A DNA stretch of 35,097 nucleotides from Actinomycetota bacterium (GTDB lineage: Bacteria; Actinomycetota; Actinomycetes; S36-B12; UBA5976): the NCBI GenBank assembly GCA_039795655.1, contig JBDKLK010000001.1, positions 1 through 35,097 on the forward strand, written 5' to 3'. Under the pieces are notes generated by a model. It ran no database searches. It had not been told where the DNA came from and saw only the letters and a program-made list of their open reading frames with translations. Made by a program: the position numbers and the translations under genes. Positions 452 to 13,532 of the stretch are shown one piece after another. How positions within the stretch are numbered: the first letter of the stretch is position 1; each line of letters begins with the position of its first letter.

Positions 452-2512
452 TTGCATCAAGAACGTGGGGTTTATGTGGATTTCAAAGATCTAGAACGTA
501 AAGCGAAAGCTGGAGATCCAGCAGCAGCTTTTGAGTATGGCAAAAAGAGTATTGAACGCGGGTACGAAGAAATTGGTCGTAAATGGTTGCAATTCGCGAT
601 TGAAAAAGGCTCTGTCGAAGCTTCTCTTGAGCTCGCAAGAATTCTAAACCTGGCAGGCGATAAAGATGGAGCAAGAAAAGCACTTGTTCTAGCGACTAAT
701 GCAATGCATCCAATGTCTTTCTTCACCGCGGGCATGATTTATCTTTCAGAACAAGACTTTCAGATGGCTGAAGCACTATTCAGATTGGCTCATCAACATG
801 GAGTGGAAGCTGCACTTGAACTTGCAGAAGGAATGCAAATATTTCGATTAGGACAACAAATTGAGAATAAGCAACACCTGAAGCTTGAAGCTGAAGTTGA
901 AAACATACTTGGACACAAAGTTGCCAAGGAAGGAAATTTTGAGGTCAGAAAAAATTGGTGGATAGATTGGTTTCCACCTAACTATGCACCAGAAAATCTA
1001 AGAAAAGCAGGCAAGGCTTACATTCGTGACTTTGATTGGCAGATTTCACAACTAACGATTTACTCTGCCAAACGCGAAAATCTTTCGCATTGGAATGAAC
1101 AGGTCGCGCGCTACGGTAGTGAAGAAAAAGCTGCAGCGAAGGTTTGTAGTGATCCGATTGCACTCCAAAGGGCTGTTGGGTTTGTTGAAGCAAACAACAT
1201 TGCAGAATTTCTCGGTTTAAAAAGTAATATGGAGAGAAAGTTCTCCCAACTAAGCGACGACAACATTCAAGGTCAGTTGCCAAATTATCTGAGCGAACAA
1301 GCGAAAATTTACTTGCGACTTAATCCAGAGGCTGTCCACAGAATTTTGACAATGATTTGTTACTTACTTTGGTCTGATGCTCCAAGAAACAACAAGCTGT
1401 TTGAATCAGAAGCAGCATTAAGTTTTGAATATGAAAATGGTAAATTAGAGTCAGCTGAAAAGAATCACCTCCAAGAACTGCGGCAAGAAATAGAGGACAA
1501 GCAACTTGTGGACTTTCAGATTCTGGAAAGAAACAGAAGCATGGTGCACCACTTTTCGAATGCATTCCCGCAAACAGGACATACACACCTAAAAGGCATG
1601 TGGCCACTCGCAGGCTGGAACGGCGCTGGCAATAGAAAACGAGTTTCTGGATGCACAGTCAATTTCCGAAATGGTGGATGGCATTGTGAAGTAGATCAAT
1701 TTGAAGAAACAGACTCAAGTTCACTTCCAGAGATTCCGCATCAAGTCATTCCTTCAAGAATTGCTAAAAATGCTGTCAAGAAAGTTGCTAAGAAAGTGGT
1801 TAAGGCAAGTCCACCATCCAAAAAAGTAATAGCAAAGAAAATGCCAGCAAAAAAGATAGCTCCAGCAAAGAAGATTACGAATATAAATAAGGCTATGCCA
1901 GCTAAGAAAATCGTTAAGAAAGCCGCTTTGCCAATCAAGAAATCAAATCCTCCGATGCCAAGCTTCGAGAATCTGGAAATGAATGGTTCAGAATTGACTT
2001 TGTCCAGATTGATTGACATCGCAGTTCAAAAAGGGGATCTCCCAATTCCGAAAGCTGCGCCTGGTTGGCAGGATAGAAAAATCGAGATTGGACCGATTGG
2101 TGGAAGGGTTCGGACTAGTGGTTGGATGTTGTTGTTCACCTTCAGCCTTGGAAAAATTTCTGGCAAGGGTGGCGTCTCGAATACCGTTGAGAAGATTGCA
2201 GCTCCTTTCCCGCCAGAAGTGAGAATCTCTGGAACATTAGCTCCTCAGCCAGAACTCACACTTCATATCGCGATACCTGGAACTCCAACTGATGATGATA
2301 GAGCTGTAACACAAACTTTCATCCAAGTGGCAAATGTCGTAGTAGATGTTTTAAGAGTCGCGATAGAAACAGGCACTTTGATTGAACCAACGGAGCAAGC
2401 CTTAGGCGCGATTGGGTTAGTTAAACCCGCATTCATCGTTAGCAAACATAAATCAAGAAACTGGAATGACAGAAACCTCGGCGGAAAATTGCTCTACGGT
2501 GAGAGCCAATAA
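452..2512 (+). CDS. Sel1-like repeat protein with an internal Lys/Ala/Pro-rich basic tract and uncharacterised middle and C-terminal domains
   Basis: 686-aa ORF starting at TTG 452; in-frame GTG 476 is an alternative start. The N-terminal ~130 aa show Sel1/TPR-like helical pairs (WLQFAIEKGSVEASLELARIL; LFRLAHQHGVEAALELAEGM). aa 437-497 form a basic tract with 21 Lys in 61 residues. The stop TAA overlaps the ATG of the next gene (TAATG, 2510-2514). Confidence 0.6.
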   Translation: MHQERGVYVDFKDLERKAKAGDPAAAFEYGKKSIERGYEEIGRKWLQFAIEKGSVEASLELARILNLAGDKDGARKALVLATNAMHPMSFFTAGMIYLSEQDFQMAEALFRLAHQHGVEAALELAEGMQIFRLGQQIENKQHLKLEAEVENILGHKVAKEGNFEVRKNWWIDWFPPNYAPENLRKAGKAYIRDFDWQISQLTIYSAKRENLSHWNEQVARYGSEEKAAAKVCSDPIALQRAVGFVEANNIAEFLGLKSNMERKFSQLSDDNIQGQLPNYLSEQAKIYLRLNPEAVHRILTMICYLLWSDAPRNNKLFESEAALSFEYENGKLESAEKNHLQELRQEIEDKQLVDFQILERNRSMVHHFSNAFPQTGHTHLKGMWPLAGWNGAGNRKRVSGCTVNFRNGGWHCEVDQFEETDSSSLPEIPHQVIPSRIAKNAVKKVAKKVVKASPPSKKVIAKKMPAKKIAPAKKITNINKAMPAKKIVKKAALPIKKSNPPMPSFENLEMNGSELTLSRLIDIAVQKGDLPIPKAAPGWQDRKIEIGPIGGRVRTSGWMLLFTFSLGKISGKGGVSNTVEKIAAPFPPEVRISGTLAPQPELTLHIAIPGTPTDDDRAVTQTFIQVANVVVDVLRVAIETGTLIEPTEQALGAIGLVKPAFIVSKHKSRNWNDRNLGGKLLYGESQ
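1760..1945 (+). repeat. Low-complexity coding repeat encoding a histone-H1-like (M)PAKKI/AKKV basic tract
   Basis: Translation is IAKNAVKKVAKKVVKASPPSKKVIAKKMPAKKIAPAKKITNINKAMPAKKIVKKAALPIKK. The DNA units atgccagc(a/t)aa(a/g)aa recur. Confidence 0.8.
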
Positions 2513-4194
2513 TGCCTAGCAAAATCTTTCCAGCAGACTTCGATATCGAGTTGCTCAATGAATCAGAGAAAAAAGTTCTGGAAGTGCTCATTAAAAAACT
2601 GCCTGATGATTCACGTGTTTATCCCTCAGTAGATGGGTTTGCGAGATTCACAAGAAGAGAAATTGATTTTGTTGTTGTGATCCCTGGTGCAGGTGTTGCT
2701 CTTCTTGAAGTAAAAAACGGATTTGAACTCAAAGACGGGAAATGGACTCAATATGATCGCACCAAAAATAAACGTGATTATTTGAATGTTTCGTTGCAAC
2801 TAGACGCTGAAAGAGAACTATTCCAAATACTTATAGATTCATATCTACATCGCAGATCGCAACCGAGATTTGTTTCTTTTCTAGTGTTAACGGACCTAAA
2901 CCTAGAAAGCAATCAAGTTGTTCCTAAAGACATTGAACGAAGTCGAATTATCCCCAAGAATCAACTAGAACATATTGTCAGCATTGTTTCACAATACCTG
3001 AATGCAAATAAAGGTGTGAATCCTTGTGATGATTACACAATAGAGAAAATAAACGATGCAATTCTCAACCGTGGTGATTTATATGAAGATTTCGTTAAGA
3101 ACACTTCATACAGAGCTGAAACTGTAGAGTCATTGACAATGGAACAAGCTTTCGTTCTAGACATGTTGGAAGACAATTCCCGCGTATATATAAACGGTGG
3201 CCCAGGTACCGGTAAAACTATTTTGGCAATAGAAATGGCACATAAACTCAGTTCCCAAGGGAAAAAAGTAGGGCTGGTTTGTTTTAACCATGGTCTTTCC
3301 TACGAAATCAAGAATCGAATTTTGGGCTGGAACCAAGAACTCACTTTTCAAGGAACTGTTAAAGAGGGATTGGCAGAATATCTCGGTGTCTCGCTTCCAG
3401 TAGTCCCAGAGGGTCAAAAGAAAATAGACCACTATTGGGAAAAAATGGTTCCAAAACTTATAAAGCGTGCTTCTCGAAAACTTGCAAAAGAGAAGAAATT
3501 TGATGCTTGGGTAGTTGACGAGGCTCAAGACATTTCACCGCAAGAACTTGAAAATCTCGAACGACTTTTGCAAGATAAAAAGAATGGCGCTATTTATCTG
3601 TTTGGCGATCCAAGACAGAATATTTTCAAGATAAAGAGCTCAGTTCCTTGGCATCTAGCACACGCACGCCTCATGTTTAATGTTCGTTGTACGGCATCCA
3701 TTGCAAACCTGCTAAATGCACTCACTCCAAACACAAAATCGATTTTTGTAGGTGACACTTCACGTCGACTCCCCGCTTATGTAGTTGTTGAGAACAGAGA
3801 TGAAATTGAAGACGGCGTAGACGAGGCAATCAAACTTCTGCTCAAATCAAATTGGGAGAAGCGAAATATTGCAGTAGTTGCCACTGGTCAGAGACTTGCG
3901 AAACACGATGAACATCGAAAGACGATTGGGACTGATAATGAATACTGGTCTGATTTCATAAATGCCAACGACGTCTTCTACTCAAGGTTGATGGCATTCA
4001 AAGGGTTGGAAAGACCGGCTGTTGTGGTTGCGTTCAATTCCGAATCTCAAAATGATGAAGAAATCAAGGAACTACTTTTCACCGCGGCGGGTCGTGCGCG
4101 AGATGAGCTAGTTTTAGTCTTAACTAAAAGTGATCTTGACTTTTTAAAAGACCTGAAGGAATTAGTGGTCGATTATCGAATTTCTAGTAAGTAG
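2512..4194 (+). CDS. NERD-domain (PD-(D/E)xK nuclease-like) protein fused to a compact SF1 UvrD/RecD-like helicase/ATPase
   Basis: 560-aa ORF. N-terminal NERD-like signature REIDFVVVIPGAGVALLEVKNG. Walker A INGGPGTGKT, Walker B WVVDEAQDI, LFGDPRQ, and C-terminal FKGLERPAVVV and FTAAGRARDELVLV. The start overlaps the upstream stop, with a GGTGAGAG purine run just upstream. Confidence 0.8.
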   Translation: MPSKIFPADFDIELLNESEKKVLEVLIKKLPDDSRVYPSVDGFARFTRREIDFVVVIPGAGVALLEVKNGFELKDGKWTQYDRTKNKRDYLNVSLQLDAERELFQILIDSYLHRRSQPRFVSFLVLTDLNLESNQVVPKDIERSRIIPKNQLEHIVSIVSQYLNANKGVNPCDDYTIEKINDAILNRGDLYEDFVKNTSYRAETVESLTMEQAFVLDMLEDNSRVYINGGPGTGKTILAIEMAHKLSSQGKKVGLVCFNHGLSYEIKNRILGWNQELTFQGTVKEGLAEYLGVSLPVVPEGQKKIDHYWEKMVPKLIKRASRKLAKEKKFDAWVVDEAQDISPQELENLERLLQDKKNGAIYLFGDPRQNIFKIKSSVPWHLAHARLMFNVRCTASIANLLNALTPNTKSIFVGDTSRRLPAYVVVENRDEIEDGVDEAIKLLLKSNWEKRNIAVVATGQRLAKHDEHRKTIGTDNEYWSDFINANDVFYSRLMAFKGLERPAVVVAFNSESQNDEEIKELLFTAAGRARDELVLVLTKSDLDFLKDLKELVVDYRISSK

Positions 4195-4242
4195 TTCTCT
4201 AAACGAGTCTCAATACTATAGTTCTTCATTCCTTGAAAAAAT

Positions 4243-6162
4243 CTAGAAATTTTCTGTTTGTATCCATTCAGATAAGCAATCACCTATACCTTGATGATTT
4301 TCAGCATCAAAAACGCTGATTGAATCTTCACCTAATCCTTGGGTAAGAATGTCTGTAATTGAATTTTCCGATTTGGAGTAATGTAGTTTGCTAGCACTTG
4401 GATCATCAATCTCACCTTTTATAACCAAGTTAACGAGAACTGCATTCCATCCTGTATCCCCCTTCTTCCTAAGTACTCTTCCCATTCTTTGAGTAACAAC
4501 TGTTTTTGAGGGTTTATGTGTGCCCATAAACACTGCTATTCGAGAGTATGGGATATCTACACCTTCATCAAGGATTTTTGGTGCACAAACCGCATCAAGC
4601 TCTCGCTTTCTCTCATCAACCGGCGCGAGTTTCGTGTTTAGAATTGTTGGTCGATCAAAAAGCACGTCCTCACCGTGCATTTCTATAGACCGCACTTTTA
4701 AGTTGAGTAAGAGATCATTGACTTCGGTCATTACTTGTTTGGTATCGCAAAAAATCAGAGTTCTTCCAGTTTGTCTTAATAGTTGTTGAATAGCTTTTAT
4801 TCCTGCTAGTTTGTCTGCTTTTGCAAGAACTTCAAAGTAGTCCTTTAGACTTGATTTATATTTCTGAGCATGTCCCAATTCATCCTCATTTAATCGGATA
4901 ATTTGATCGACTTCTTCATCGAGTGTAGAGCTGGTCTTAAGTTTACGTTTCCAGCCAAATAAATCGTTTTTTGCTAATTGAAGTCTATCTGCTGCTTTTC
5001 TGAATTTTAGTTTGTCATGAATATTACTCTGACACGCAATTGTAATTACCTTGTATTTCGCAACTACATTATCTTCTACTGCGGCTGGATATGAATAATT
5101 AAAAGTAATAGTTTGATTAAAAAATCTAAACAATTTATAGGCATTCGGCCCATCACTTCCTAAATATGCGGTGAGACCTATGGCTTCTTGGTAGTTATCA
5201 ATCAAGATATTCGACCAAGTTTCAGAAGCATAATGATGAACTTCATCAATGACGATTAGTGGCCGCATTCGTTTTTCTGGGTGTTTTTCACTCTTACTTA
5301 CTAGAGATTGAACAAGGGCAACAAGAATGTTTGGACCTTGACCATTCCAGCCGGCGTAGTGACTCTTCCCGTGCATAGAGAATAAATTGAAACTCCCACT
5401 TCTATCAATTTGATAGTGCCTGAAAGGACTTACAGATGCGTTATTGCTCTCTTTGAATGAATCTTCTATCCATTGATCTAGTAGCAATTTACGATGTGTA
5501 ACAACTACAACAGGACGATTCTCAGATATAGCTTCCAAAATGCACAGCAACCCTAGAAGTGTTTTTCCACTACCAGTGGCAGCTTCGATTATCGACTTAC
5601 GCCCGTGAGATGCCCAACTTAGGAGAGCACGATTTTGCCATGTTCGAATTTCGCCGAATGAAGAAAGAAAATCCAAATATTTATTGTCAACTTTCCACTC
5701 TCTACAATGAAACAGGAGAGAAATAAGGAGAAGCATCCCTTCCACCGTAAGATTTGGATACATTTCGCCAGAATTGAAAGAAATATATAGTGTGATATCA
5801 ATTTTGGTGAGATCACTATGAATTGGACAAGTGAAATCCTTCAATTCTTTTTTGTAATCTCGAATTTCACTTGAAAACTTTTTATTATGGACAGCCAAAA
5901 GCACTAAAAGTTTTGATAGTTGACAAGTGCTCTGGTATACAAATCTTTTTGCTGATTGTTCTTCATAAATATCAAGATTGAACTTCCCATTTTCATCAAT
6001 CATCCATGTCACATTTGACGTCATTTTCTCAATTCGGACTTTTAGTTGACTTCCAATAGCTTTTTCAAAATCGAAATCATTTTCGAAATTCAAGTCAAGA
6101 TTTAATTCATTAAAACTTAAACCATATTTTTCAACTAATTCATACAAAGCATCAGTTTGCAT
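4243..6162 (-). CDS. SF2 DEAD/DEAH-box (ResIII-type) helicase with an unassigned ~175-aa N-terminal domain
   Basis: 639-aa ORF. Motif I AATGSGKTLLGL, motif II VIDEVHHY, helicase-C segment TLIFCDT..LDEGVDIP, motif VI QRMGRVLR. It is convergent with the NERD-helicase gene across a 48-nt gap. Confidence 0.8.
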   Translation of the reverse strand: MQTDALYELVEKYGLSFNELNLDLNFENDFDFEKAIGSQLKVRIEKMTSNVTWMIDENGKFNLDIYEEQSAKRFVYQSTCQLSKLLVLLAVHNKKFSSEIRDYKKELKDFTCPIHSDLTKIDITLYISFNSGEMYPNLTVEGMLLLISLLFHCREWKVDNKYLDFLSSFGEIRTWQNRALLSWASHGRKSIIEAATGSGKTLLGLLCILEAISENRPVVVVTHRKLLLDQWIEDSFKESNNASVSPFRHYQIDRSGSFNLFSMHGKSHYAGWNGQGPNILVALVQSLVSKSEKHPEKRMRPLIVIDEVHHYASETWSNILIDNYQEAIGLTAYLGSDGPNAYKLFRFFNQTITFNYSYPAAVEDNVVAKYKVITIACQSNIHDKLKFRKAADRLQLAKNDLFGWKRKLKTSSTLDEEVDQIIRLNEDELGHAQKYKSSLKDYFEVLAKADKLAGIKAIQQLLRQTGRTLIFCDTKQVMTEVNDLLLNLKVRSIEMHGEDVLFDRPTILNTKLAPVDERKRELDAVCAPKILDEGVDIPYSRIAVFMGTHKPSKTVVTQRMGRVLRKKGDTGWNAVLVNLVIKGEIDDPSASKLHYSKSENSITDILTQGLGEDSISVFDAENHQGIGDCLSEWIQTENF

Positions 6163-6248
6163 TGTCCCCCAATAACTTTCAAATGTATGAGAAAATCAGA
6201 GGCAATGATGTCACCATTTGTAGTTCATCTCAAGAACATTGTTGCTAA

Positions 6249-7016
6249 CTAACCCTTAGAAATACTCGAGTTTGTCCAGGTAGAAATACGACGAGGTGCG
6301 CGACCAGTGACGCGAGCTGCTTTGCGATAAAGCATCGCTGGTTTGCCTACTCCGACGCTACGTGTTTCGCCCAGTGGTTCTAGGTAACGCTCGAAAGTTC
6401 TGCGGAAGGCGTCACGCGAATAAACCTCACGGCCCAAGACAGCGCAATGCACTTCAAACAGGTCTGGCATAGTGAAAATTTCATCTAGGAAATTGCGCGG
6501 ATCGATTTCTTTGAAGTATTTGCTACGCAAGTAATCGATAGCTGCATCAATAATTTTTTGGTGATCGAGTGGCAGCACAGCTTGTGAGTTACTAAACCGG
6601 ATTTCGTGGTCATCCACGATTGCAAGTGTTCGGTGTTCTGGATCTTGCGAGACTGCTTCGAGAGCAACCTTGTATGGCACCGCCACAACGTGACCAACCG
6701 ACATAGTCCAACCGCGCGGGTCGCGTTTTGGGTCATCGAGTACGAGGAGCTGGCGGGGAGTGAAACCGATGATGCCAGCTTTTTCTGCCAGGCAGATGGT
6801 CGCGGATTCGGCTAGGCGCTGGTGTTCGCGGACGAAACGACCGGGAATCATCCACTTGTCAGCCTGGAAACCTTCATCCCTACGGACGAGCAGAGTCTGG
6901 AGCGTGCGCTCGCCGGATTCGTCTGGGTCGCTCACGGTCAAAATGGCAATATCGACGGCCATATGAACGCCTGGAAAGCCGTCTAGACTCTCAAAATCAC
7001 TATATGTCAGGGTCAT
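6249..7016 (-). CDS. nrtR: NrtR-family transcriptional regulator (non-canonical Nudix domain + C-terminal winged helix)
   Basis: 255-aa ORF. Nudix fold with degenerate box GRFVREHQRLAESATICLAEKAGI, an RDPRGW segment, and a C-terminal FTMPDLFEVHCAVLGREVYSRDAFRRTFERYLEPLGE..GKPAMLYRK typical of the NrtR wHTH. There is no Shine-Dalgarno, and a TAATAT hexamer ends 6 nt upstream of the ATG. Confidence 0.7.
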   Translation of the reverse strand: MTLTYSDFESLDGFPGVHMAVDIAILTVSDPDESGERTLQTLLVRRDEGFQADKWMIPGRFVREHQRLAESATICLAEKAGIIGFTPRQLLVLDDPKRDPRGWTMSVGHVVAVPYKVALEAVSQDPEHRTLAIVDDHEIRFSNSQAVLPLDHQKIIDAAIDYLRSKYFKEIDPRNFLDEIFTMPDLFEVHCAVLGREVYSRDAFRRTFERYLEPLGETRSVGVGKPAMLYRKAARVTGRAPRRISTWTNSSISKG

Positions 7017-7022
7017 GTGGCA

Positions 7023-7028
7023 ATATTA
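7023..7028 (-). promoter_or_regulatory. Possible -10 hexamer (TAATAT on the minus strand) for a leaderless nrtR transcript
   Basis: Forward atatta at 7023-7028 reads TAATAT on the minus strand. It sits 6 nt from the A of the ATG at 7016, and no SD lies between them. Confidence 0.3.
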
Positions 7029-7035
7029 ATTCGTA

Positions 7036-7099
7036 TTCGCAATTAATCCAAATAGGAATCTGAGAGCAAATGTCAGGGACCCTGTGCTATAATTGCGGA
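7036..7099. promoter_or_regulatory. Pair of inverted 10-mers (TAATTGCG(A/G)A), a candidate operator for the adjacent NrtR-like regulator
   Basis: Forward ttcgcaatta (7036-7045) is the reverse complement of taattgcgaa. Forward taattgcgga lies at 7090-7099, a 9/10 match. The second copy overlaps the -10 box and continues into the small palindrome TGCGgaatCGCA (7094-7105). The first copy lies inside ATTAATT-n9-AATTAAT (7025-7047). Confidence 0.4.
7085..7093 (+). promoter_or_regulatory. Extended -10 promoter element TGcTATAAT for the phosphatase operon
   Basis: Perfect TATAAT at 7088-7093 is preceded by TGc, 65 nt upstream of ATG 7158. GGGAGG Shine-Dalgarno at 7147-7152. Confidence 0.45.
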
Positions 7100-7157
7100 A
7101 TCGCACAAATTAAGTCTCAAACTAAAGAGTGCGCAGTTAACTAAACGGGAGGAAAAC

Positions 7158-7757
7158 ATGGCGAATTCGCCAAAACAGCACGAACCAGAGAGTCACCCAG
7201 AAGCACTTACACGCCCAGCGGCCCCGAAGTGGTTCAACTACGAAGATCCAATTTGGTCTGAAATCGTTCCAGGCCTTTGGCAAGGTGGAACTAACGATGT
7301 GGACATTGTTGGCAATCCACTACCAGCTCCAATCATCTCGGCAGAAAACTTCGACACCGTCGTAACAATGTATGCCTACGCAAATCCGGTTGATTGGTTC
7401 GTAAAAGAATTGCGTTTCGCAATTTATGACCACGACATTGAACACTTCGATCTCGAAGAACTGTTTAGCGTTGTGAAGTTTGCACACGCAGACTGGAAAA
7501 AAGGCAAGCGAGTTTTGGTTCGCTGCCAGGCAGGACTAAATCGTTCAGGTCTTGTCACCGCGTTGATTTTGATTCGCGATGGTTACACACCACAAGAAGC
7601 AATCACAAAACAACGTCTCAATCGCGATGCTTCAGTTTTGTTCAACCAACGTTTCGAAAAATGGTTGATGAATCTCGATGTTGATGTGTGGAGAGCTGAT
7701 GTTTATCCATCAACTTCTTCGTCCCCAGACAATGTTGATTCAAGGTCTGCCGCATAA
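7158..7757 (+). CDS. Cys-based dual-specificity (PTP-superfamily) phosphatase
   Basis: 199-aa ORF with a strong SD. It has the DSP-like IVPGLWQGG segment, an intact P-loop VLVRCQAGLNRSGLV (CX5R-S, nt 7524-7547) and upstream acidic residues (YDHDIEHFD) as general-acid candidates. Confidence 0.75.
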   Translation: MANSPKQHEPESHPEALTRPAAPKWFNYEDPIWSEIVPGLWQGGTNDVDIVGNPLPAPIISAENFDTVVTMYAYANPVDWFVKELRFAIYDHDIEHFDLEELFSVVKFAHADWKKGKRVLVRCQAGLNRSGLVTALILIRDGYTPQEAITKQRLNRDASVLFNQRFEKWLMNLDVDVWRADVYPSTSSSPDNVDSRSAA

Positions 7758-7823
7758 CAGAAGTTAAAACTTCATAACAACTAAATATAACAACCTAAAC
7801 TTAGAAAGAAGTTGATAAACAAA

Positions 7824-8777
7824 ATGACCACTTATGTTCATCCGTTCCACATTGGTCGTGGAACAACAATTGGTCCTCTGACCATTTTCCCGATCTGGAG
7901 TGAAGTGCAACAAGCAATGCCATTCCAGATGCCTGCTGACTTTAATATGTCAGTACTTGAAGAAAAGCGCCCAACAGTGCAATCACTTCGAGTTGAAAAT
8001 ACTTCTAATCAAGGCTTATTGATTCCGGAAGGAACAATCCTTGATGGCGGTATGCAAACCCGTGTTGCAATTCGCGACATTTTCGTGGAAGGCGGTGAAA
8101 GCATGAACCTCGATGTGCGTTGTGTTGAACGCGGTCGATGGAATGGAGCTCGCGAACATGCTGTCGATGGTCGCGCACCAATCAGCGTTGTAGCTGCATT
8201 GCGTGGAATCGGTTTGCGTGACTATGCATCACAAGAAAATGTTTGGAATCGCGTAAGCCGTCTTGAAGGCCATTACGGTTCACGTTCAACCAATTCATTG
8301 CTAGACATCATGAGCGATGAAGGTGTGAACACTCGCCGCGAACGCCAAAGCCGCGACCGACGCAGTCACCGCCGTTTGATTGATCCAGCAATCGTTAGTG
8401 AAATCACTGAGTTTTCACGCAAACCATTGCCAGGCCAACAAGGCGTGATGATTGGTGTGGCTGGCCATCCGGTTGTGCTTGAAATTATGGGTACTCCAGA
8501 AGTATTTGCAGATCAGTACGCATCTATCTTGAACGCAATCACTTTGGATGCAAGCACCCTTGAATACAAACCAACTTCAGGGCGTCGAGCTCGTGCATTC
8601 GCAGCCGAAATCCTGAGTACACCAATAGAAGTAATTGCTGAATCAAGCAACTCACTTTCTTTCGCGGGTGCTAGTCAGCTGACTGACATCCGTTCTATTG
8701 CGAGCATCGACGGCGGCGCTGTCCCTTTCCACACCGCCGTGATTAATCGCAAGCACGAATTGGCGCTGGCCGTTTAG
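7824..8777 (+). CDS. DUF6569 / ARPP-1-like protein of unknown function
   Basis: ATG 7824 is preferred over the in-frame TTG 7812 of the ORF track. N-terminal GPLTIFPIW and VRCVERGRW (nt 8121-8141) match my recollection of this family's signatures. It also has an Arg-rich linker RRERQSRDRRSHRR and a C-terminal GVMIGVAGHPVVLEIMG..ILNAITLDA segment. The family assignment is from memory and not verified. Confidence 0.55.
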   Translation: MTTYVHPFHIGRGTTIGPLTIFPIWSEVQQAMPFQMPADFNMSVLEEKRPTVQSLRVENTSNQGLLIPEGTILDGGMQTRVAIRDIFVEGGESMNLDVRCVERGRWNGAREHAVDGRAPISVVAALRGIGLRDYASQENVWNRVSRLEGHYGSRSTNSLLDIMSDEGVNTRRERQSRDRRSHRRLIDPAIVSEITEFSRKPLPGQQGVMIGVAGHPVVLEIMGTPEVFADQYASILNAITLDASTLEYKPTSGRRARAFAAEILSTPIEVIAESSNSLSFAGASQLTDIRSIASIDGGAVPFHTAVINRKHELALAV

Positions 8778-8809
8778 TCCTTTCGTAGGCCAAGCCCAAT
8801 TCGTTAAAA

Positions 8810-8840
8810 GGGTGGAGCAGTTCGGGGGAATGCTCCACCC
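8810..8840 (+). terminator. GC-rich hairpin, a possible intrinsic terminator or attenuator after the ARPP-1-like gene
   Basis: GGGTGGAGCA (8810-8819) pairs perfectly with TGCTCCACCC (8831-8840) across an 11-nt loop. It is followed by accacTTTTc, only a short T run. Confidence 0.45.
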
Positions 8841-8875
8841 ACCACTTTTCTACACATATATATAAGGAGTCGCCC

Positions 8876-9208
8876 ATGTGGGTATTTTCAGAAACTGGCT
8901 TCATCAGCGCCATCTCCAAGTCTGGTGATTTGTTCCAAGTTCGCGCCCGAGATCGTCAATCTCTAGAAGACCTAGCGGTGAGCACCGGTCTCGAAATCAT
9001 CAAAACACCACAAGGTGATTACCCATACCGCGTGGAACTTGCCCGCGAGCAGTTCGTCACCTGGATGATTGAACAAATGGAAGCTATCGATTACAACAAC
9101 TTCAAATCTCGCGTGCATGACACCCGCGGATATGAATTTGTCAGCCCTCTCCACCAAGTTTGGAGCATCATGCACGAAGTAGAAGATAAGGAAGCACGCA
9201 CAAAATAA
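8876..9208 (+). CDS. Hypothetical 110-aa acidic protein
   Basis: Strong AAGGAG SD 8 nt upstream of ATG 8876. GC is about 55 % in a hand-counted sample, like the genes to its left. I recognise no motif. Confidence 0.6.
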   Translation: MWVFSETGFISAISKSGDLFQVRARDRQSLEDLAVSTGLEIIKTPQGDYPYRVELAREQFVTWMIEQMEAIDYNNFKSRVHDTRGYEFVSPLHQVWSIMHEVEDKEARTK

Positions 9209-10260
9209 TGAACCCAGAACCCGCTAGTCGAAAATCAAAGAATCTATTCCTCAGAAGAGATGTCGTCATTGAAACTTCTTTTGGCTATTTTGCGCGTTTT
9301 AAATTAACTGAATGGAATCTAATCAACGACCAAGTCCGAGTTCTATATAAACCTCGTCGTCGAGATGTGGTTTCACCACGTGAAGCTTTTTATAAACGAA
9401 TGCTAGATGCGGCTAACTTACCTCAGAGGGAGACCACTGAATTACCGCTTGAAGCAGGTGAAACTATCTCCATACATAGATTTGGTGATTGGATCTTCAA
9501 AGTAAATCTAAATGGATTCCTTGATTACTCTGAAGCTGAAATCGGTGACATTCTGGAAATTCACTTCCGAGTGATTAATGGAATTTTTGAAAAAGTTGAA
9601 CTGGCAATTGTGGATCTTGAAGATAGAAGAGTAGACATCAACTTCGCTGACATTGTCATGCAAACGGCACTTATTCAAAATGATCCAATCTGGCGAGCTG
9701 GCGCAGCGCTGATCGAAAAAGCATTGCGTCTAACCAATCCCGAAGATCCGATGTTTTCTGGACACCAAACTGGCTCACTTAGTTTTTGGTCATACAGAAG
9801 TTACAACGCACAGGAAGAAATTTATGTTCAGTGGCGCTGGAATTCTGTGGGTGAGCTTTATGTTGAGGCAGTCTCAAATAAATACGCGTGGCCAAAGATT
9901 CCAGTAGACGGCATAAACCATCTATTGGAAACAGGATGGAGTGGTCCATCCGATGATGAAGAAGAAGACTTGCCAAACTATTTCCGCACATATGAAGAAG
10001 TAGACGCGAAAATAATTGCCGATGAACTAATGAAAGTTTTCCGCGATGTTTATTTCATCAAGCGAGATTGGATCTGGTTATTCCAGCCATTTCATCTTGT
10101 TGAGCGACTTCTAAGTGGTAGGGATGAAGATGACTTTAGATTCAAACCTGATGCCTTCTTTATTTACGACGAAGAACAAACTTTCAAACGTCGTTGCGAA
10201 ATGGGCGTGCAGCTCAGCGAAGATGTCATCATCCCAAGTCATTTGCGTCCGCTGAGTTAG
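9208..10260 (+). CDS. Hypothetical 350-aa protein whose C-terminal half is possibly YbjN / TY-Chap chaperone-like
   Basis: The ATG overlaps the upstream TAA (TAATG, 9206-9210). The segment YVEAVSNKYAWPKIPVDGINHLLETGWSGPSDDEEEDLPNYFRTY resembles the YbjN-type fold signature as I remember it. The N-terminal half is unassigned and AT-rich. Confidence 0.45.
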   Translation: MNPEPASRKSKNLFLRRDVVIETSFGYFARFKLTEWNLINDQVRVLYKPRRRDVVSPREAFYKRMLDAANLPQRETTELPLEAGETISIHRFGDWIFKVNLNGFLDYSEAEIGDILEIHFRVINGIFEKVELAIVDLEDRRVDINFADIVMQTALIQNDPIWRAGAALIEKALRLTNPEDPMFSGHQTGSLSFWSYRSYNAQEEIYVQWRWNSVGELYVEAVSNKYAWPKIPVDGINHLLETGWSGPSDDEEEDLPNYFRTYEEVDAKIIADELMKVFRDVYFIKRDWIWLFQPFHLVERLLSGRDEDDFRFKPDAFFIYDEEQTFKRRCEMGVQLSEDVIIPSHLRPLS

Positions 10261-10377: not shown

Positions 10378-12042
10378 ATGATTTCAACATCTAGGAAATT
10401 ACTAATCGCTGCCATCGGAATCATTCTGATCTCATTTGGCCTTGGAACACCTGCCAAAGCAATGCCTTCAGATTGGGACTTCGAGTTTGAACCAAATCTG
10501 ATTACTCAAGGTCAAGCAGCCGTTGTAGTTCTATTTATTGAAGAGTGCTCTACCGCTCCGACAAATTTTGAAGTTAACTTTAGAAATAACAAAGAAAAAT
10601 ATAAGTTGACCAAGTCCAACTGGAGTTTCAAACAGACAATTGCAGAAGGAAACTACACAGCATCATGGGTTTTCACCGGTAAAGGCAATGCTGGAGTCAA
10701 AGCAGGGTATGTTGCATTTGATGCGAAGGTATCAGGTGGCTGCGCAGAAGAAGAAATTTACGGCGATGACTATGAAAGCGTCACAACTGCAAAAGATCCA
10801 ATTTCTGTTGATTGGATTTCTGATTTTTCAATCGCCCCTGACTACTTGGGAATCAAAGCTGGCTGGACTCCTGTGGAATCTGCCATCAAGTATGAAGTTC
10901 AAATCGGTAAAACAGCTGATGAGATTGTGTGGCAAGAGGTCGGCGAAACCAATAATCATCTAATCAGCATTTCAGCTGAAGAATTCAACTTGGATTATGG
11001 ATTCGAGTATGAAATTAGAGTGAGACCAGTATTTAAGAAATCCAAAGGTGAATGGACTGGAAGCAATGGTTGGTGGGGATACGAATCACGTGTCCAAGCT
11101 TGGACTTCATTAGTTGGAGATTCAGATCGCACTGAAGTTACAGAATTTGAAGATGCTGAAGATATTCAATTCAACTATAAAGTTGAAAACTGTCCTGATC
11201 CATCCGAATTTTATGAACCGTGGACTGTCGTAAATGAAATTTCATCTAAGAATGAGATGGGGATTTCAGGAGATGATTACTTAGGTTTGAATGAGTATTC
11301 AAACTCATCAGAATTCACAAACTATAATTTTGATGATACAGGAAATGACCTCATCGTAAGTTGGCAAACTAACCTTGATTTGTCCCCACAAACTTACCAA
11401 TGGGGACAATATTTCGCTGTGCAAACTGGCTGCATTCGCGATAACACTGATTCTCAATTTATAAATACCTGGCCATTCAGCGAGTACTCATATTTCAAGA
11501 TAGTAAAAAATGGAAAAGTCGCTCCGATAACGCTCAATAATGATTCAGCCACAACCCACAGCACAGAATCTTCAATTTTGTTTAAGTGGGGCGCACCACT
11601 CAATTCAAATGATGGCCCTTTCACTTATGAGATTTACGATACAAACTTGTCAGAGGATGTGGCTGACTGGGATTTGTTGAAAACAACATCAAAGCGCAGT
11701 TACCTGATGAAAAATTTGGTGGCTGACCAAGAAGTTTCACTAGGAGTAATTGTCCGTAATTCAGCTGGAACCTCAACTATGGAATTATGGACGAGCACTA
11801 GCAGTGTTATTGCAAAAATGAAAAGTTCAATATCCAAGCAGACTCTAGCTAAGAGACTCGGATTGTCACGATATGCAATTTCAATATCTGCCACAAAACT
11901 TGACAACGTTGTGAATGCCTGCAAGATCTCCAAGAAAAGCATCAAATTTGGTTCAAAAATTGGTGTTTGTGCAGTTCGTTACACCTGGAAAGAAGATGGG
12001 GAAGACAAGTCCGCAACTTCGTACATCTGGACGAAGAAATAG
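10378..12042 (+). CDS. Secreted surface protein with fibronectin type III-like domains
   Basis: AGGAGAG SD and signal peptide MISTSRKLLIAAIGIILISFGLGTPAKA. FN3-like segments (GWTPVESAIKYEVQIG...YEIRVRPV; ILFKWGAPLNSNDGPFTYEIYD...VIVRNSAGTS). Very low GC (about 27 % in one sample). Confidence 0.65.
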   Translation: MISTSRKLLIAAIGIILISFGLGTPAKAMPSDWDFEFEPNLITQGQAAVVVLFIEECSTAPTNFEVNFRNNKEKYKLTKSNWSFKQTIAEGNYTASWVFTGKGNAGVKAGYVAFDAKVSGGCAEEEIYGDDYESVTTAKDPISVDWISDFSIAPDYLGIKAGWTPVESAIKYEVQIGKTADEIVWQEVGETNNHLISISAEEFNLDYGFEYEIRVRPVFKKSKGEWTGSNGWWGYESRVQAWTSLVGDSDRTEVTEFEDAEDIQFNYKVENCPDPSEFYEPWTVVNEISSKNEMGISGDDYLGLNEYSNSSEFTNYNFDDTGNDLIVSWQTNLDLSPQTYQWGQYFAVQTGCIRDNTDSQFINTWPFSEYSYFKIVKNGKVAPITLNNDSATTHSTESSILFKWGAPLNSNDGPFTYEIYDTNLSEDVADWDLLKTTSKRSYLMKNLVADQEVSLGVIVRNSAGTSTMELWTSTSSVIAKMKSSISKQTLAKRLGLSRYAISISATKLDNVVNACKISKKSIKFGSKIGVCAVRYTWKEDGEDKSATSYIWTKK

Positions 12043-12121
12043 TTAATAACTATTCCTTCATTTTCGGAGATTTTGCGTAGAAATTCGGCAACCTCTTCTA
12101 TAGGTGCCCTTTAGGCAAACC

Positions 12122-12136
12122 TAGACTGCTAGTCTA
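12122..12136. promoter_or_regulatory. Small palindrome TAGACTgctAGTCTA upstream of the propeller/FN3 gene
   Basis: 6-bp perfect arms with a 3-nt spacer, 23 nt upstream of ATG 12159. Its function is unknown. Confidence 0.2.
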
Positions 12137-12158
12137 CGTTCACAATCGGAGGATAAAT

Positions 12159-13532
12159 ATGAAAAAACTTTTGTCATTTAGCCTGCTCGCTACTTTGGTG
12201 TTCTCAGTAGCAGTGGCTTACCCATCAAGCGCTAGCACATCAAGTGCAACCGGTCTTGCAATGGCGACTACAGATGGTTACCTAACAGACTTCGCTATCA
12301 GCAGCGATGGAAAATACATGTACACAGCAACTTCTGCTGGAGTTCCATACACAACAAATGAAGATTTGCTTTTGAAGATCGATACCAGCAACTTCGAAAT
12401 TGTTGACACACTTCAACTTGAGTCAGGATTCGATGTTTACGCAATCAGCATTAACCCGGACGACTATTTCATTTATGTCGGTGGCTATAACGGCGATGTA
12501 ATTGCAGTGGAAACTGAAGAACTAACTTTGTCCGATTCAGTTCAATTGGAAGAGCCATACCAAAATGTTCTTAACAGCGTTGTGAGCGCTGACGGCGAAT
12601 TCCTTTACCTAACAACTGATTCAGGTTATGTTGTAAAAGTTAGACTTCAAAATGGTCTTGCTGTTGAAGATACTCTTCACTTGACAGACGGCTCAGCTGT
12701 TTACGCAGGATTCCTTTCTGCTGACGACGCAACTGGCTATTTCATTAAATCGGTTTGGGAATCTAATCAAGCACCAGTTGTCTATAAAGTTAATCTTTCA
12801 AATATGACCGAAACCTCACATGCAAACCTAAATGTTGGTGAGGGCTACATCATGGACTTTATGCCGATCTCAAATACAGAAGGCGCATACATAACAAATG
12901 CTGCCGATTCAACTTTGATTATGGCCGTTGTAAATCTTTCAACTTTGGGAGTAACCACACATGACATCAGTGATGGGTATCAGTTCCACGGGCCATCAGC
13001 AATTTCTGCTGACAAAAAAACTATCTACACATTTCCTGGCAACGATAGTGTTTACCAGCCGCTAGAAATCGATGTTGCAACAAGAACATTAAGGCAACAG
13101 TACTATTTCTTGGGAGAATGGCAAGAAAATGTCTCGAGCGCATTCGTTAACCCTGTTTCTGGCGATGTTTATATTTCTTACGGTGAAGTTTGGTTCGCGG
13201 ACTGGTCAGCAATTTACACACCATCAGGTGTGGACATAATCATTGCAGCTCCGAAAGCCCCGGGTGCGCCAAGAAGCGTCAAAGCTGTTTACGCTCCAAA
13301 GAAAACCACTTTCTCATGGGCAACACCTGCAAATGATGGTGGTGCAGAAATCACAGGTTACAAATACTGCTACCTAAAGTGCACTAAGGCTGCGAGCTGG
13401 AAAACCACCACAAAGAAAACTGTGGTGATCAAAGGTATTGCTAAAGGCACCTCAGGCACATTCGAAGTTCGTGCTGTAAATAGCGTTGGTGCAGGCGAGA
13501 TTAAGAAGCTTAAATTCAAGCAAGCTAAATAA
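12159..13532 (+). CDS. Secreted YVTN-type beta-propeller protein with a C-terminal FN3 domain
   Basis: GGAGGA SD and signal peptide MKKLLSFSLLATLVFSVAVAYPSSAS. Repeated blades (DGKYMYTATSAG, DDYFIYVGGYNGDVIAV, DGEFLYLTTDSGYVVKV, DKKTIYTFPGND, SGDVYISYGE). C-terminal FN3 (APGAPRSVKAVYAPKKTTFSWATPANDGGAEITGYKY...FEVRAVNSVGAG). Confidence 0.7.
   Translation: MKKLLSFSLLATLVFSVAVAYPSSASTSSATGLAMATTDGYLTDFAISSDGKYMYTATSAGVPYTTNEDLLLKIDTSNFEIVDTLQLESGFDVYAISINPDDYFIYVGGYNGDVIAVETEELTLSDSVQLEEPYQNVLNSVVSADGEFLYLTTDSGYVVKVRLQNGLAVEDTLHLTDGSAVYAGFLSADDATGYFIKSVWESNQAPVVYKVNLSNMTETSHANLNVGEGYIMDFMPISNTEGAYITNAADSTLIMAVVNLSTLGVTTHDISDGYQFHGPSAISADKKTIYTFPGNDSVYQPLEIDVATRTLRQQYYFLGEWQENVSSAFVNPVSGDVYISYGEVWFADWSAIYTPSGVDIIIAAPKAPGAPRSVKAVYAPKKTTFSWATPANDGGAEITGYKYCYLKCTKAASWKTTTKKTVVIKGIAKGTSGTFEVRAVNSVGAGEIKKLKFKQAK

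Follow-up and report, generated by a model that had tools for sequence, protein, structure and literature searches.

We analysed a window of 35,097 nt from the genome of an Actinomycetota bacterium (positions 1-35,097 of contig JBDKLK010000001.1, assembly GCA_039795655.1) and found that the five-gene unit at 6249-10260 is probably a form of the Actinomycetota ARG-centric ADP-ribose (ADPr) systems that lacks the ADP-ribosylglycohydrolase (ARG; Pfam ADP_ribosyl_GH) itself, its role most likely being to undo or clear away ADP-ribosylation when phages attack. The ARG-centric class was described by Iyer, Burroughs, Anantharaman and Aravind (Viruses 2022;14:1977, section 3.8; PMC9503650) as systems centred on ARG without a linked transferase and predicted to counter viral ADP-ribosylation. 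The other parts listed there are Nudix-HTH (helix-turn-helix) or WYL repressors, phosphatases of the rhodanese-phosphatase superfamily, ARPP, chaperones including the new families TY-Chap1, 2 and 3, and variable restriction endonucleases and helicases. We place the locus in this class because of its domain assignments, its agreement with the published gene set, the presence of ARG in the operons of its nearest relatives and the conservation of the genes as a block. Judged by sequence comparison, class membership appears well supported apart from the missing ARG.

The unit comprises five open reading frames (ORFs), one on the reverse strand (6249-7016) and four on the forward strand (7158-7757, 7812/7824-8777, 8876-9208 and 9208-10260), which in this order gave the Pfam calls NrtR_WHD, DSPc, ARPP-1, no match (a protein that we call S110) and TY-Chap3. 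It is a single unit in which nrtR diverges from dsp-arpp-hairpin-S110-TYchap3. A preliminary description of the same DNA, made without database searches, had recognised an NrtR-type regulator divergent from an operon for a DSP-fold phosphatase of 199 aa, an ARPP-1/DUF6569-like protein of about 317 aa and, after a hairpin, an acidic protein of 110 aa. Searches with hidden Markov models (HMMs) upheld the NrtR, DSPc and ARPP-1 assignments; the name ARPP-1 does attach to PF20208, while DUF6569 could not be verified. That description had ended the module at 9208. The unit runs on to TY-Chap3, whose ATG takes its first base from the end of the S110 stop codon, so that the two codons overlap (TAATG).

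The product of nrtR (6249-7016, reverse strand, 255 aa) joins an N-terminal, degenerate Nudix-like sensor to a C-terminal winged helix (PF21906, E=2.5e-11), which is the two-domain build of NrtR proteins. It aligned across the Nudix and winged helix-turn-helix (wHTH) parts with PDB entries 3gz5 (Shewanella NrtR) and 2fml, both at E=1.3e-13, and over residues 14-234 with the NCBIfam model NtrR (E=7.9e-20); because it scored 71 bits against an equivalog cutoff of 400, it is not the equivalog. Weak matches to AraR_C (E=4.3e-4) and PDB 5bs6 (E=3.3e-7) were also obtained. As read from the sequence, the Nudix box (G59-X5-H65...T73-I74-C75-L76-A77-E78) has one catalytic R/E residue left, and would fit the non-catalytic sensor type of Rodionov et al. 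(NAR 2008; PMC2330246).

The phosphatase (7158-7757, forward strand) is a stand-alone Cys phosphatase of the dual specificity phosphatase (DSP) fold, in the rhodanese-phosphatase superfamily (DSPc, PF00782; 38.2 bits against a gathering score of 33.5). Its CX5R-S loop is intact, nt 7524-7547 encoding CQAGLNRS (Cys123-X5-Arg129-Ser130), and Asp91 and Asp93 stand 30-32 residues before Cys123, completing the signature of P-loop and upstream general-acid Asp of DSPs and protein tyrosine phosphatases (PTPs). The protein matched phrog_10650 ('dual specificity phosphatase', E=2.9e-15) and scored 64.6 bits against gp121 of Gordonia phage Yvonnetastic, compared with at most 16.5 bits against ARG-fused DSP domains. 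The 26 phage records with homologues of the DSP (30-38% identical) comprise 24 of Mycobacterium, Gordonia and Rhodococcus phages and 2 of Halogranum phages, and bear no annotation beyond PTPc or dual-specificity phosphatase; the nearest solved relatives of the DSP in the PDB are small archaeal-type protein tyrosine phosphatases (E ~1e-6). Since the DSP lies nearer to actinophage phosphatases, another member of the superfamily seems to have displaced the ARG-fused DSP in the clade of the window.

The predicted enzyme ARPP-1 (7824-8777, forward strand; PF20208, E=1.8e-39, 136 bits) is 317 aa long from the ATG at 7824 and 321 aa from a TTG at 7812. Positions 8121-8141 encode CVERGRW, exactly as first described, and all 21 of the 21 invariant columns in a 28-sequence alignment are present, including H9, E46, Q78, R80, C100, E102, R105, W106, Q137, W141, Q205 and H303. 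Iyer et al. (PMC9503650) reported an absolutely conserved Cys and Gln in ARPP and predicted four-stranded beta-meanders in duplicate and, inserted into them, a beta-barrel bearing the conserved residues. Our AlphaFold2 (AF2) model (pLDDT 93, pTM 0.91) puts the invariant residues in a beta-rich N-terminal half and predicts beta-meanders at 207-222 and 268-308. The Arg-rich linker noticed earlier is real; it is an insertion confined to the ARPPs most similar to that of the window, from about 37% identity upwards, and the model is less confident there. ARPP gave no fold match in the PDB (Foldseek; best E=0.026, TM <=0.15), no match to PDB sequence profiles and no homologue in 50,697 phage records, and in the literature searched it is described only by Iyer et al. 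2022. The last gene (9208-10260, forward strand), translationally coupled to S110, encodes a predicted peptide-binding chaperone, TY-Chap3 (PF22552, E=5.5e-6); the match reaches 27.5 bits where the gathering score is 27, which is borderline in the window, and is clear in relatives.

A scan of one genome per species returned 108 ARPP relatives, of which the best 80 loci, nearly all labelled Actinomycetota, were kept. A divergent NrtR lay within 700 nt of ARPP in 67 of the 71 species loci with enough upstream sequence, and the gene after ARPP encoded ARG in 58/75 and DSPc in 43/75, with further matches to DSP-type models; the ARG and DSPc counts rest on Pfam, and iterated ARG and DSP HMMs cross-matched through fusion proteins. 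These figures bear out the grouping of the genes that was first proposed. ARG in this position is usually fused to a DSP domain, and three long contigs, including that of Aeromicrobium sp. Leaf291, read NrtR(-) / ARPP followed by an ARG-DSPc fusion. The clade of the window is low in GC, comes from freshwater-looking metagenomes (rhodopsin genes occur on contig L011), presumably lies near Nanopelagicales and has split layouts, either NrtR | DSP, ARPP, S110, TY-Chap3 or DSP, DSP ... NrtR | ARPP, S110. Close relatives of the window can also carry ARG: L102, whose ARPP is 81% identical, has a 317-aa ARG beginning 10 nt beyond TY-Chap3, and in the contig of P0003 (ARPP 75% identical) ARG lies two genes after TY-Chap3.

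The preliminary description had overlooked this usual central enzyme of the family, which is missing here. Searches by tblastn with four ARG proteins (three ARG-DSP fusions and the L102 ARG) found no ARG or remnant in the 35 kb window, which rules out an ARG that is hidden or present as a pseudogene, and ARG and its remnants are missing from contigs L011-L013 as well. Other ARG-less NrtR|ARPP loci were found in five Micromonospora species and in the P0026 clade; the ORFs after ARPP in these loci gave no useful Pfam match and may be spurious frames. We surveyed the ORFs of at least 100 aa in the window, minus those nested within listed genes. As the preliminary description had stated for the operon, no NAD synthesis or salvage gene was among them, and there was none in any surveyed neighbourhood, which rules out a classical NAD regulon. 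A Pfam scan of the same ORFs gave no Macro, NADAR, ADP-ribosyltransferase or SIR2 domain, the sole SIR2 line being a PADLOC match to the DSP (E=0.0094) that we judged to be noise.

The ARG-less form appears to be maintained. Contigs L011-L013 hold the five genes, and in L011 (172.9 kb), which represents a sister strain, the neighbours differ on both sides: WhiB and small genes lie upstream, where the window has helicases, and DoxX/DPRP directly downstream, where the window has fn3 genes. The same five genes with different flanks indicate that the module spans 6249-10260. The helicases were rejected as module members since the sister strain lacks them, and the helicase-rich cluster, which the preliminary description had noted next to the operon, is therefore outside the unit. 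DNA identity between window 6247-9210 and L011 7376-10335 was 88.3%, that of the alignable part of TY-Chap3 74.8% and that of flanking core genes 76.7-78.6%. The dS values of dsp, arpp and S110 (0.32-0.50) are below those of core genes (0.65 to saturated), which suggests that the nrtR-dsp-arpp-S110 block was recently exchanged between lineages, after their genomes had split. The dN/dS values between window and L011 (nrtR 0.05, dsp 0.105, arpp 0.10, S110 0.074) indicate purifying selection; coming from two ARG-less lineages, they argue that the ARG-less form is not decaying. TY-Chap3 shares 64% of its amino acids with L011 and the other four proteins 91-95%, and fast evolution of this kind would be expected of a conflict-facing part.

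The 141-bp region between nrtR and dsp (7017-7157) contains two operator-like sites. Across Actinomycetota, NrtR|ARPP intergenic regions have in common a 20-bp palindrome, TTAGCGCA-N4-TGCGCTAA, which has no GT-N7-AC core and occurs within three mismatches in 55/66 non-redundant regions, with two copies in 38 of them; at several loci the second copy lies directly 3' of TGCTACAAT, a -10-like element. In the window, imperfect palindrome A, TTAATTCGTATTCGCAATTA (7026-7045), stands beside the nrtR start codon and scored 3.2 bits with the position weight matrix (PWM) of the family, rank 9 of 35,078 window positions. Imperfect palindrome B, TAATTGCGGAATCGCACAAA (7090-7109), scored 6.6 bits, rank 1 in the 35 kb window, and overlaps the -10-like element and the likely transcription start of dsp. 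Palindromes A and B are the two arms of an inverted repeat, I1, that was found independently of the PWM, and in L012 the spacer of B is changed from GGAA to GTTA with its arms kept. The -10-like element of the dsp operon, an extended TGcTATAAT at 7085-7093 (forward strand), was recognised by inspection and is missed by a two-hexamer promoter scan because a -35 match is absent. Related loci have TGCTACAAT at the equivalent place and the canonical operator directly after it. The overlap of palindrome B with the -10-like element of the window would fit repression by promoter occlusion.

A contig 99.9% identical to the window (L002, JGI 3300047560) is missing 79 nt within nrtR, corresponding to window 6871-6949. 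The deletion removes approximately codons 23-49 and causes a frameshift, so that the called NrtR has 200 aa where that of the window has 255. Either the variant is natural, with the operon derepressed, or it arose in assembly.

Between arpp and S110 lies the hairpin (8809-8840, forward strand), which has a 10-bp stem and is followed by ACCACTTTTC, and is possibly a weak terminator or an attenuator of transcription reading on into S110 and TY-Chap3. The segment 8778-8875 folds at -28.9 kcal/mol (z=-1.9). The hairpin is unchanged in L011 and L012, differs by one loop base in L013 and falls within the 88%-identical block; it fails a simple terminator rule and matches no Rfam family.

S110 (8876-9208, forward strand) is a small, mildly acidic alpha/beta protein (110 aa, pI 5.1) of a large family without annotation that phages also have. 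It has no Pfam, NCBIfam, PHROG or PADLOC match. Its AF2 model (pLDDT 92), with three strands, a helix, a strand and three helices, gave no significant Foldseek match in the PDB, where no sequence profile matched either, and resembled two predicted viral proteins in BFVD (E ~1e-7, TM 0.77-0.80). A profile search sized the family at 6,518 representative clusters at E <=1e-3 and 3,857 at <=1e-10, and none of the 120 best family members listed in a follow-up profile search has a functional name or Pfam domain. In host loci with that side present, S110 is always directly 3' of ARPP save in L017, where a WhiB-like ORF lies between them, and in P0141 it is fused to TY-Chap3. In some proteins of the family the S110 part is N-terminal and is joined to TY-Chap3, a sigma-70 region 4 HTH or other domains of unknown kind. 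A relationship between S110 and TY-Chap3 themselves was ruled out (hhalign probability 0.1%). The idea that S110 substitutes for ARG, raised when a first survey found S110 only in ARG-less loci, was dropped because L102 and the P0003 contig hold both in one operon.

On the phage side, 80 IMG/VR viral contigs carry S110 homologues that are 41-56% identical, and homologues occur among small genes upstream of terminase in actinophage-like contigs of 57-130 kb and in Actinomycetia phage DSL-LC01. The latter (L096) also has an annotated WhiB gene about 4 kb upstream of its S110 gene. Host and phage copies are intermixed in a rough neighbour-joining tree without support values. In six related phages of Gram-negative hosts (L104-L109: Morganella Mecenats66, E. 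coli ECML-606-1, Aeromonas ST4, Pseudomonas Jeremy, Pseudomonas Touem01 and Yersinia fHe-Yen8-01), the gene order is giant virion protein, 165-aa gene, NUDIX hydrolase, S110 homologue, so that S110 directly follows a NUDIX-domain gene, which Pfam confirms in five (E 1e-10 to 1e-16). Because this order is confined to these six it represents the synteny of one lineage, and a general Nudix-S110 link in phages is ruled out by its absence from the 80 IMG/VR contigs and the actinophages. Three of the phage records label the giant virion protein an ADP-ribosyltransferase, a label that Pfam and PDB sequence searches did not support.

The module has a GC content of 0.47-0.50 and, as had been noted, AT-rich flanks (0.37-0.39 on the helicase side and ~0.41 downstream). 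Upstream, 452-6162 is a separate candidate defence cluster (GC 0.37-0.39), missing from L011, that encodes a 686-aa protein without a family match, a NERD-UvrD helicase (PADLOC RTasNERD-Hel, E=9.6e-29) and, on the opposite strand, a PbeA-like/dnd-restriction-type helicase (PADLOC PbeA, E=2e-41; TIGR04095, E=3.6e-26). Downstream, 10378-13532 encodes two secreted fn3-containing proteins (554 and 457 aa) with signal-peptide-like N-termini; since such proteins are placed differently among related strains, this surface-protein region is variable. Besides helicases and fn3 proteins, the rest of the window holds ordinary chromosomal genes (DPRP photolyase-related protein, glutamate dehydrogenase, sugar ABC transporter, ROK, GH4 and NAGidase), and no tRNA or Rfam RNA was found in it. 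Defence-type neighbours of related loci are SIR2_2, MmeI, Type ISP, GmrSD, HNH and SbcCD, and also NERD-UvrD. WhiB-family genes recur in or beside modules (L003, L006, L010, L011 and L017), in L006 between ARPP and TY-Chap3.

In the mechanism that we propose, the NrtR-like protein, whose degenerate Nudix box would leave it unable to cleave its ligand, would repress both divergent promoters through the two palindromes, one of which lies over the dsp -10 element. By analogy with characterised NrtR proteins, ADPr or a phosphorylated ADPr derivative would release the repressor. The phosphatase would then use Cys123 and Arg129 to strip the terminal phosphate off an ADPr-derived sugar phosphate, ARPP, through Cys100 and a cluster of Gln78, His, Glu and Arg, would have the ribose moiety or an ADPr adduct as its target, and S110 and TY-Chap3 may be an accessory target-binding pair. 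ARG would be dispensable in the ARG-less form or supplied from elsewhere in the genome. Reversal or mop-up of ADP-ribosylation during phage attack is the most likely role suggested by these comparisons; the ADPr gating and the enzyme chemistry are what we infer from knowledge of the families. An ADPr link and a possible conflict role had been put forward in the preliminary description and match the published prediction; the pairing is not new (Iyer et al. 2022). Its interpretation is thus partly supported, being right in direction with an incomplete picture of the module.

Several observations weigh against this assignment. The survey of window ORFs found no ARG (PF03747), so that the adduct-removal model is left without its key step. 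The stand-alone DSP and the ARG-fused DSP domain are not orthologous and may act on different substrates. The family operator has no match within three mismatches in the window, where the sites score 3-7 bits against 20-27 for canonical ones; with sites this weak, we can only infer the repression step. The hairpin may separate transcription of S110 and TY-Chap3 from that of dsp and arpp. The defence neighbourhood supports a conflict role by association only, without a background rate, and experimental work on ARPP, TY-Chap3 or these operons did not turn up in our literature search.

A housekeeping response to ADPr or NAD damage would explain part of the evidence, and we consider it unlikely but worth weighing. 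Here the NrtR-gated operon would clear or dephosphorylate ADPr products or non-enzymatic adducts arising from the cell's own NAD turnover or ADP-ribosyltransferases, free ADPr being a reactive sugar. NrtR proteins are metabolic ADPr sensors and Streptomyces has an nrtR-draG operon (Rodionov et al. 2008; PMC2330246), the module is under strong purifying selection like that of metabolic genes, and the P0026 locus is set among the housekeeping genes L31, RF-1, PrmC and SHMT. However, the distribution is patchy, with ARG present or absent among close relatives, the dS of the block suggests recent transfer, defence-type neighbours appear repeatedly, TY-Chap3 evolves fast, and both DSP and S110 have close phage homologues. 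The PTPc annotation of the phage homologues of the DSP, the archaeal-type tyrosine phosphatases among the solved relatives of the DSP and the lack of an ARG, Macro or NADAR gene in the window could also point to protein-phosphatase signalling without ADPr chemistry, in which the DSP acts on Tyr/Ser/Thr, ARPP is its partner or adaptor and the regulator senses another nucleotide. We give this only a small chance. The phage annotations are name transfers and not assays, ARPPs of this clade are joined to ARG or have it as a neighbour in 58/75 species, and also in the nearest relatives with the dsp-arpp-S110-TYchap3 order, and the alignment of the regulator with ADPr-binding NrtR runs from end to end.

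An enzyme-like ARPP with an invariant Cys/His/Glu set, under tight negative control and in a defence-island context, might instead be a toxic effector that arrests growth, with or without the DSP, and is silenced by NrtR until NAD+ breakdown signals infection (abortive infection). If the nrtR deletion in L002 is real, such a derepressed operon is tolerated, but constitutive expression is then not lethal. Moreover, the usual partner ARG is a reversal enzyme and not a toxin, and no antitoxin-like gene is evident, making a toxic effector very improbable. That the locus is a decaying remnant whose function went with the deletion of ARG would account for the absence of ARG where close relatives have it, yet this is scarcely credible: none of the five ORFs is disrupted, the comparison of two ARG-less lineages gives dN/dS values of 0.05-0.105, hairpin and intergenic region are conserved, and ARG-less loci recur in the five Micromonospora species and the P0026 clade. 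The selection analysis already goes most of the way to refuting decay.

Apart from the ARG-centric systems, no bacterial answer to the ADP-ribosylation that phages inflict is so far known to have been proposed, and the components of these systems other than ARG and the regulator are biochemically blank. The persistence of regulator, phosphatase, ARPP, S110 and chaperone without ARG shifts attention to ARPP: it may be this protein, and not ARG, that forms the unvarying catalytic core. A bolder extension, which we hold to be quite unlikely, is that the S110 family is a novel domain which binds or processes nucleotides or ADPr and serves both parties in the phage-host ADP-ribosylation conflict, and that in ARG-less modules NrtR, phosphatase, ARPP and S110 are self-sufficient with ARPP as the adduct remover. 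If this were true, the window would be the first host-side sighting of a family of more than 6,500 clusters, which hosts couple to ARPP and TY-Chap3 and phages carry alone or, in the one Gram-negative phage group, right behind a Nudix hydrolase and close to the virion protein labelled an ADP-ribosyltransferase. Should nothing unusual come to light, the locus would be a further member of the class predicted before. Handles for further work are the operator consensus of the NrtR clade, the five-gene cassette, ARG+ and ARG- variants at 76-88% DNA identity, and S110.

How does the locus compare with known systems? With the AraR-type Nudix regulators of Bacteroides (5bs6) the window regulator has in common a two-domain build and weak matches; AraR senses arabinose and controls sugar utilisation, whereas the NrtR matches of the window protein are stronger and the genes it would regulate are ADPr-linked. 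DraT/DraG and DarT/DarG likewise have ADPr chemistry at their centre, and the canonical relatives of our module use a hydrolase that removes ADP-ribosyl groups. Unlike these pairs, no transferase is encoded with the hydrolase, the window has no such hydrolase at all, and control would be transcriptional, by a ligand-sensing repressor instead of toxin-antitoxin pairing.

NrtR regulons resemble the locus in having a Nudix-like and wHTH regulator that diverges from two function-unknown genes, with palindromes in the common intergenic region. Rodionov et al. (PMC2330246) recognised ADPr-related regulons that are not NAD-biosynthetic, namely a 'nrtR1-draG' operon in Streptomyces, associated with endogenous reversible ADP-ribosylation, and 'nrtR2<#>nrtX-nrtY' divergons of unknown function in Actinobacteria-2b and some gamma-proteobacteria. 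The latter may be an earlier sighting of this gene set, with ARPP and ARG-phosphatase as possible identities of nrtX and nrtY. In contrast to the 21-bp palindromic NrtR operators, which have a GT-N7-AC core in most groups (PMC2330246), the operator of our clade is 20 bp long and without that core, and the window has no NAD genes.

The ARG-centric class, itself a computational prediction, provides the nearest match. The window has its Nudix-HTH regulator, rhodanese-phosphatase-superfamily phosphatase, ARPP and TY-Chap3, one of the accessory chaperone types of these systems (TY-Chap1/2/3, vWA and SseB; PMC9503650), and likewise belongs to Actinomycetota, has no linked ADP-ribosyltransferase or sirtuin, has variable helicase or nuclease neighbours and shows gain and loss of modules between close genomes. 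Where the preliminary description had suggested ligand gating and possible signalling through a metabolite, the published model stresses taking ADPr off macromolecules (PMC9503650). The window differs in having no defining ARG gene, with all other listed core parts present, in a separate phosphatase that lies upstream of ARPP and belongs to an actinophage-DSP-like clade, and in the additional conserved S110, which is unnamed in the text of PMC9503650. What is new here is therefore an ARG-less form that appears to be maintained, a phage-like stand-alone DSP and the S110 family common in phages.

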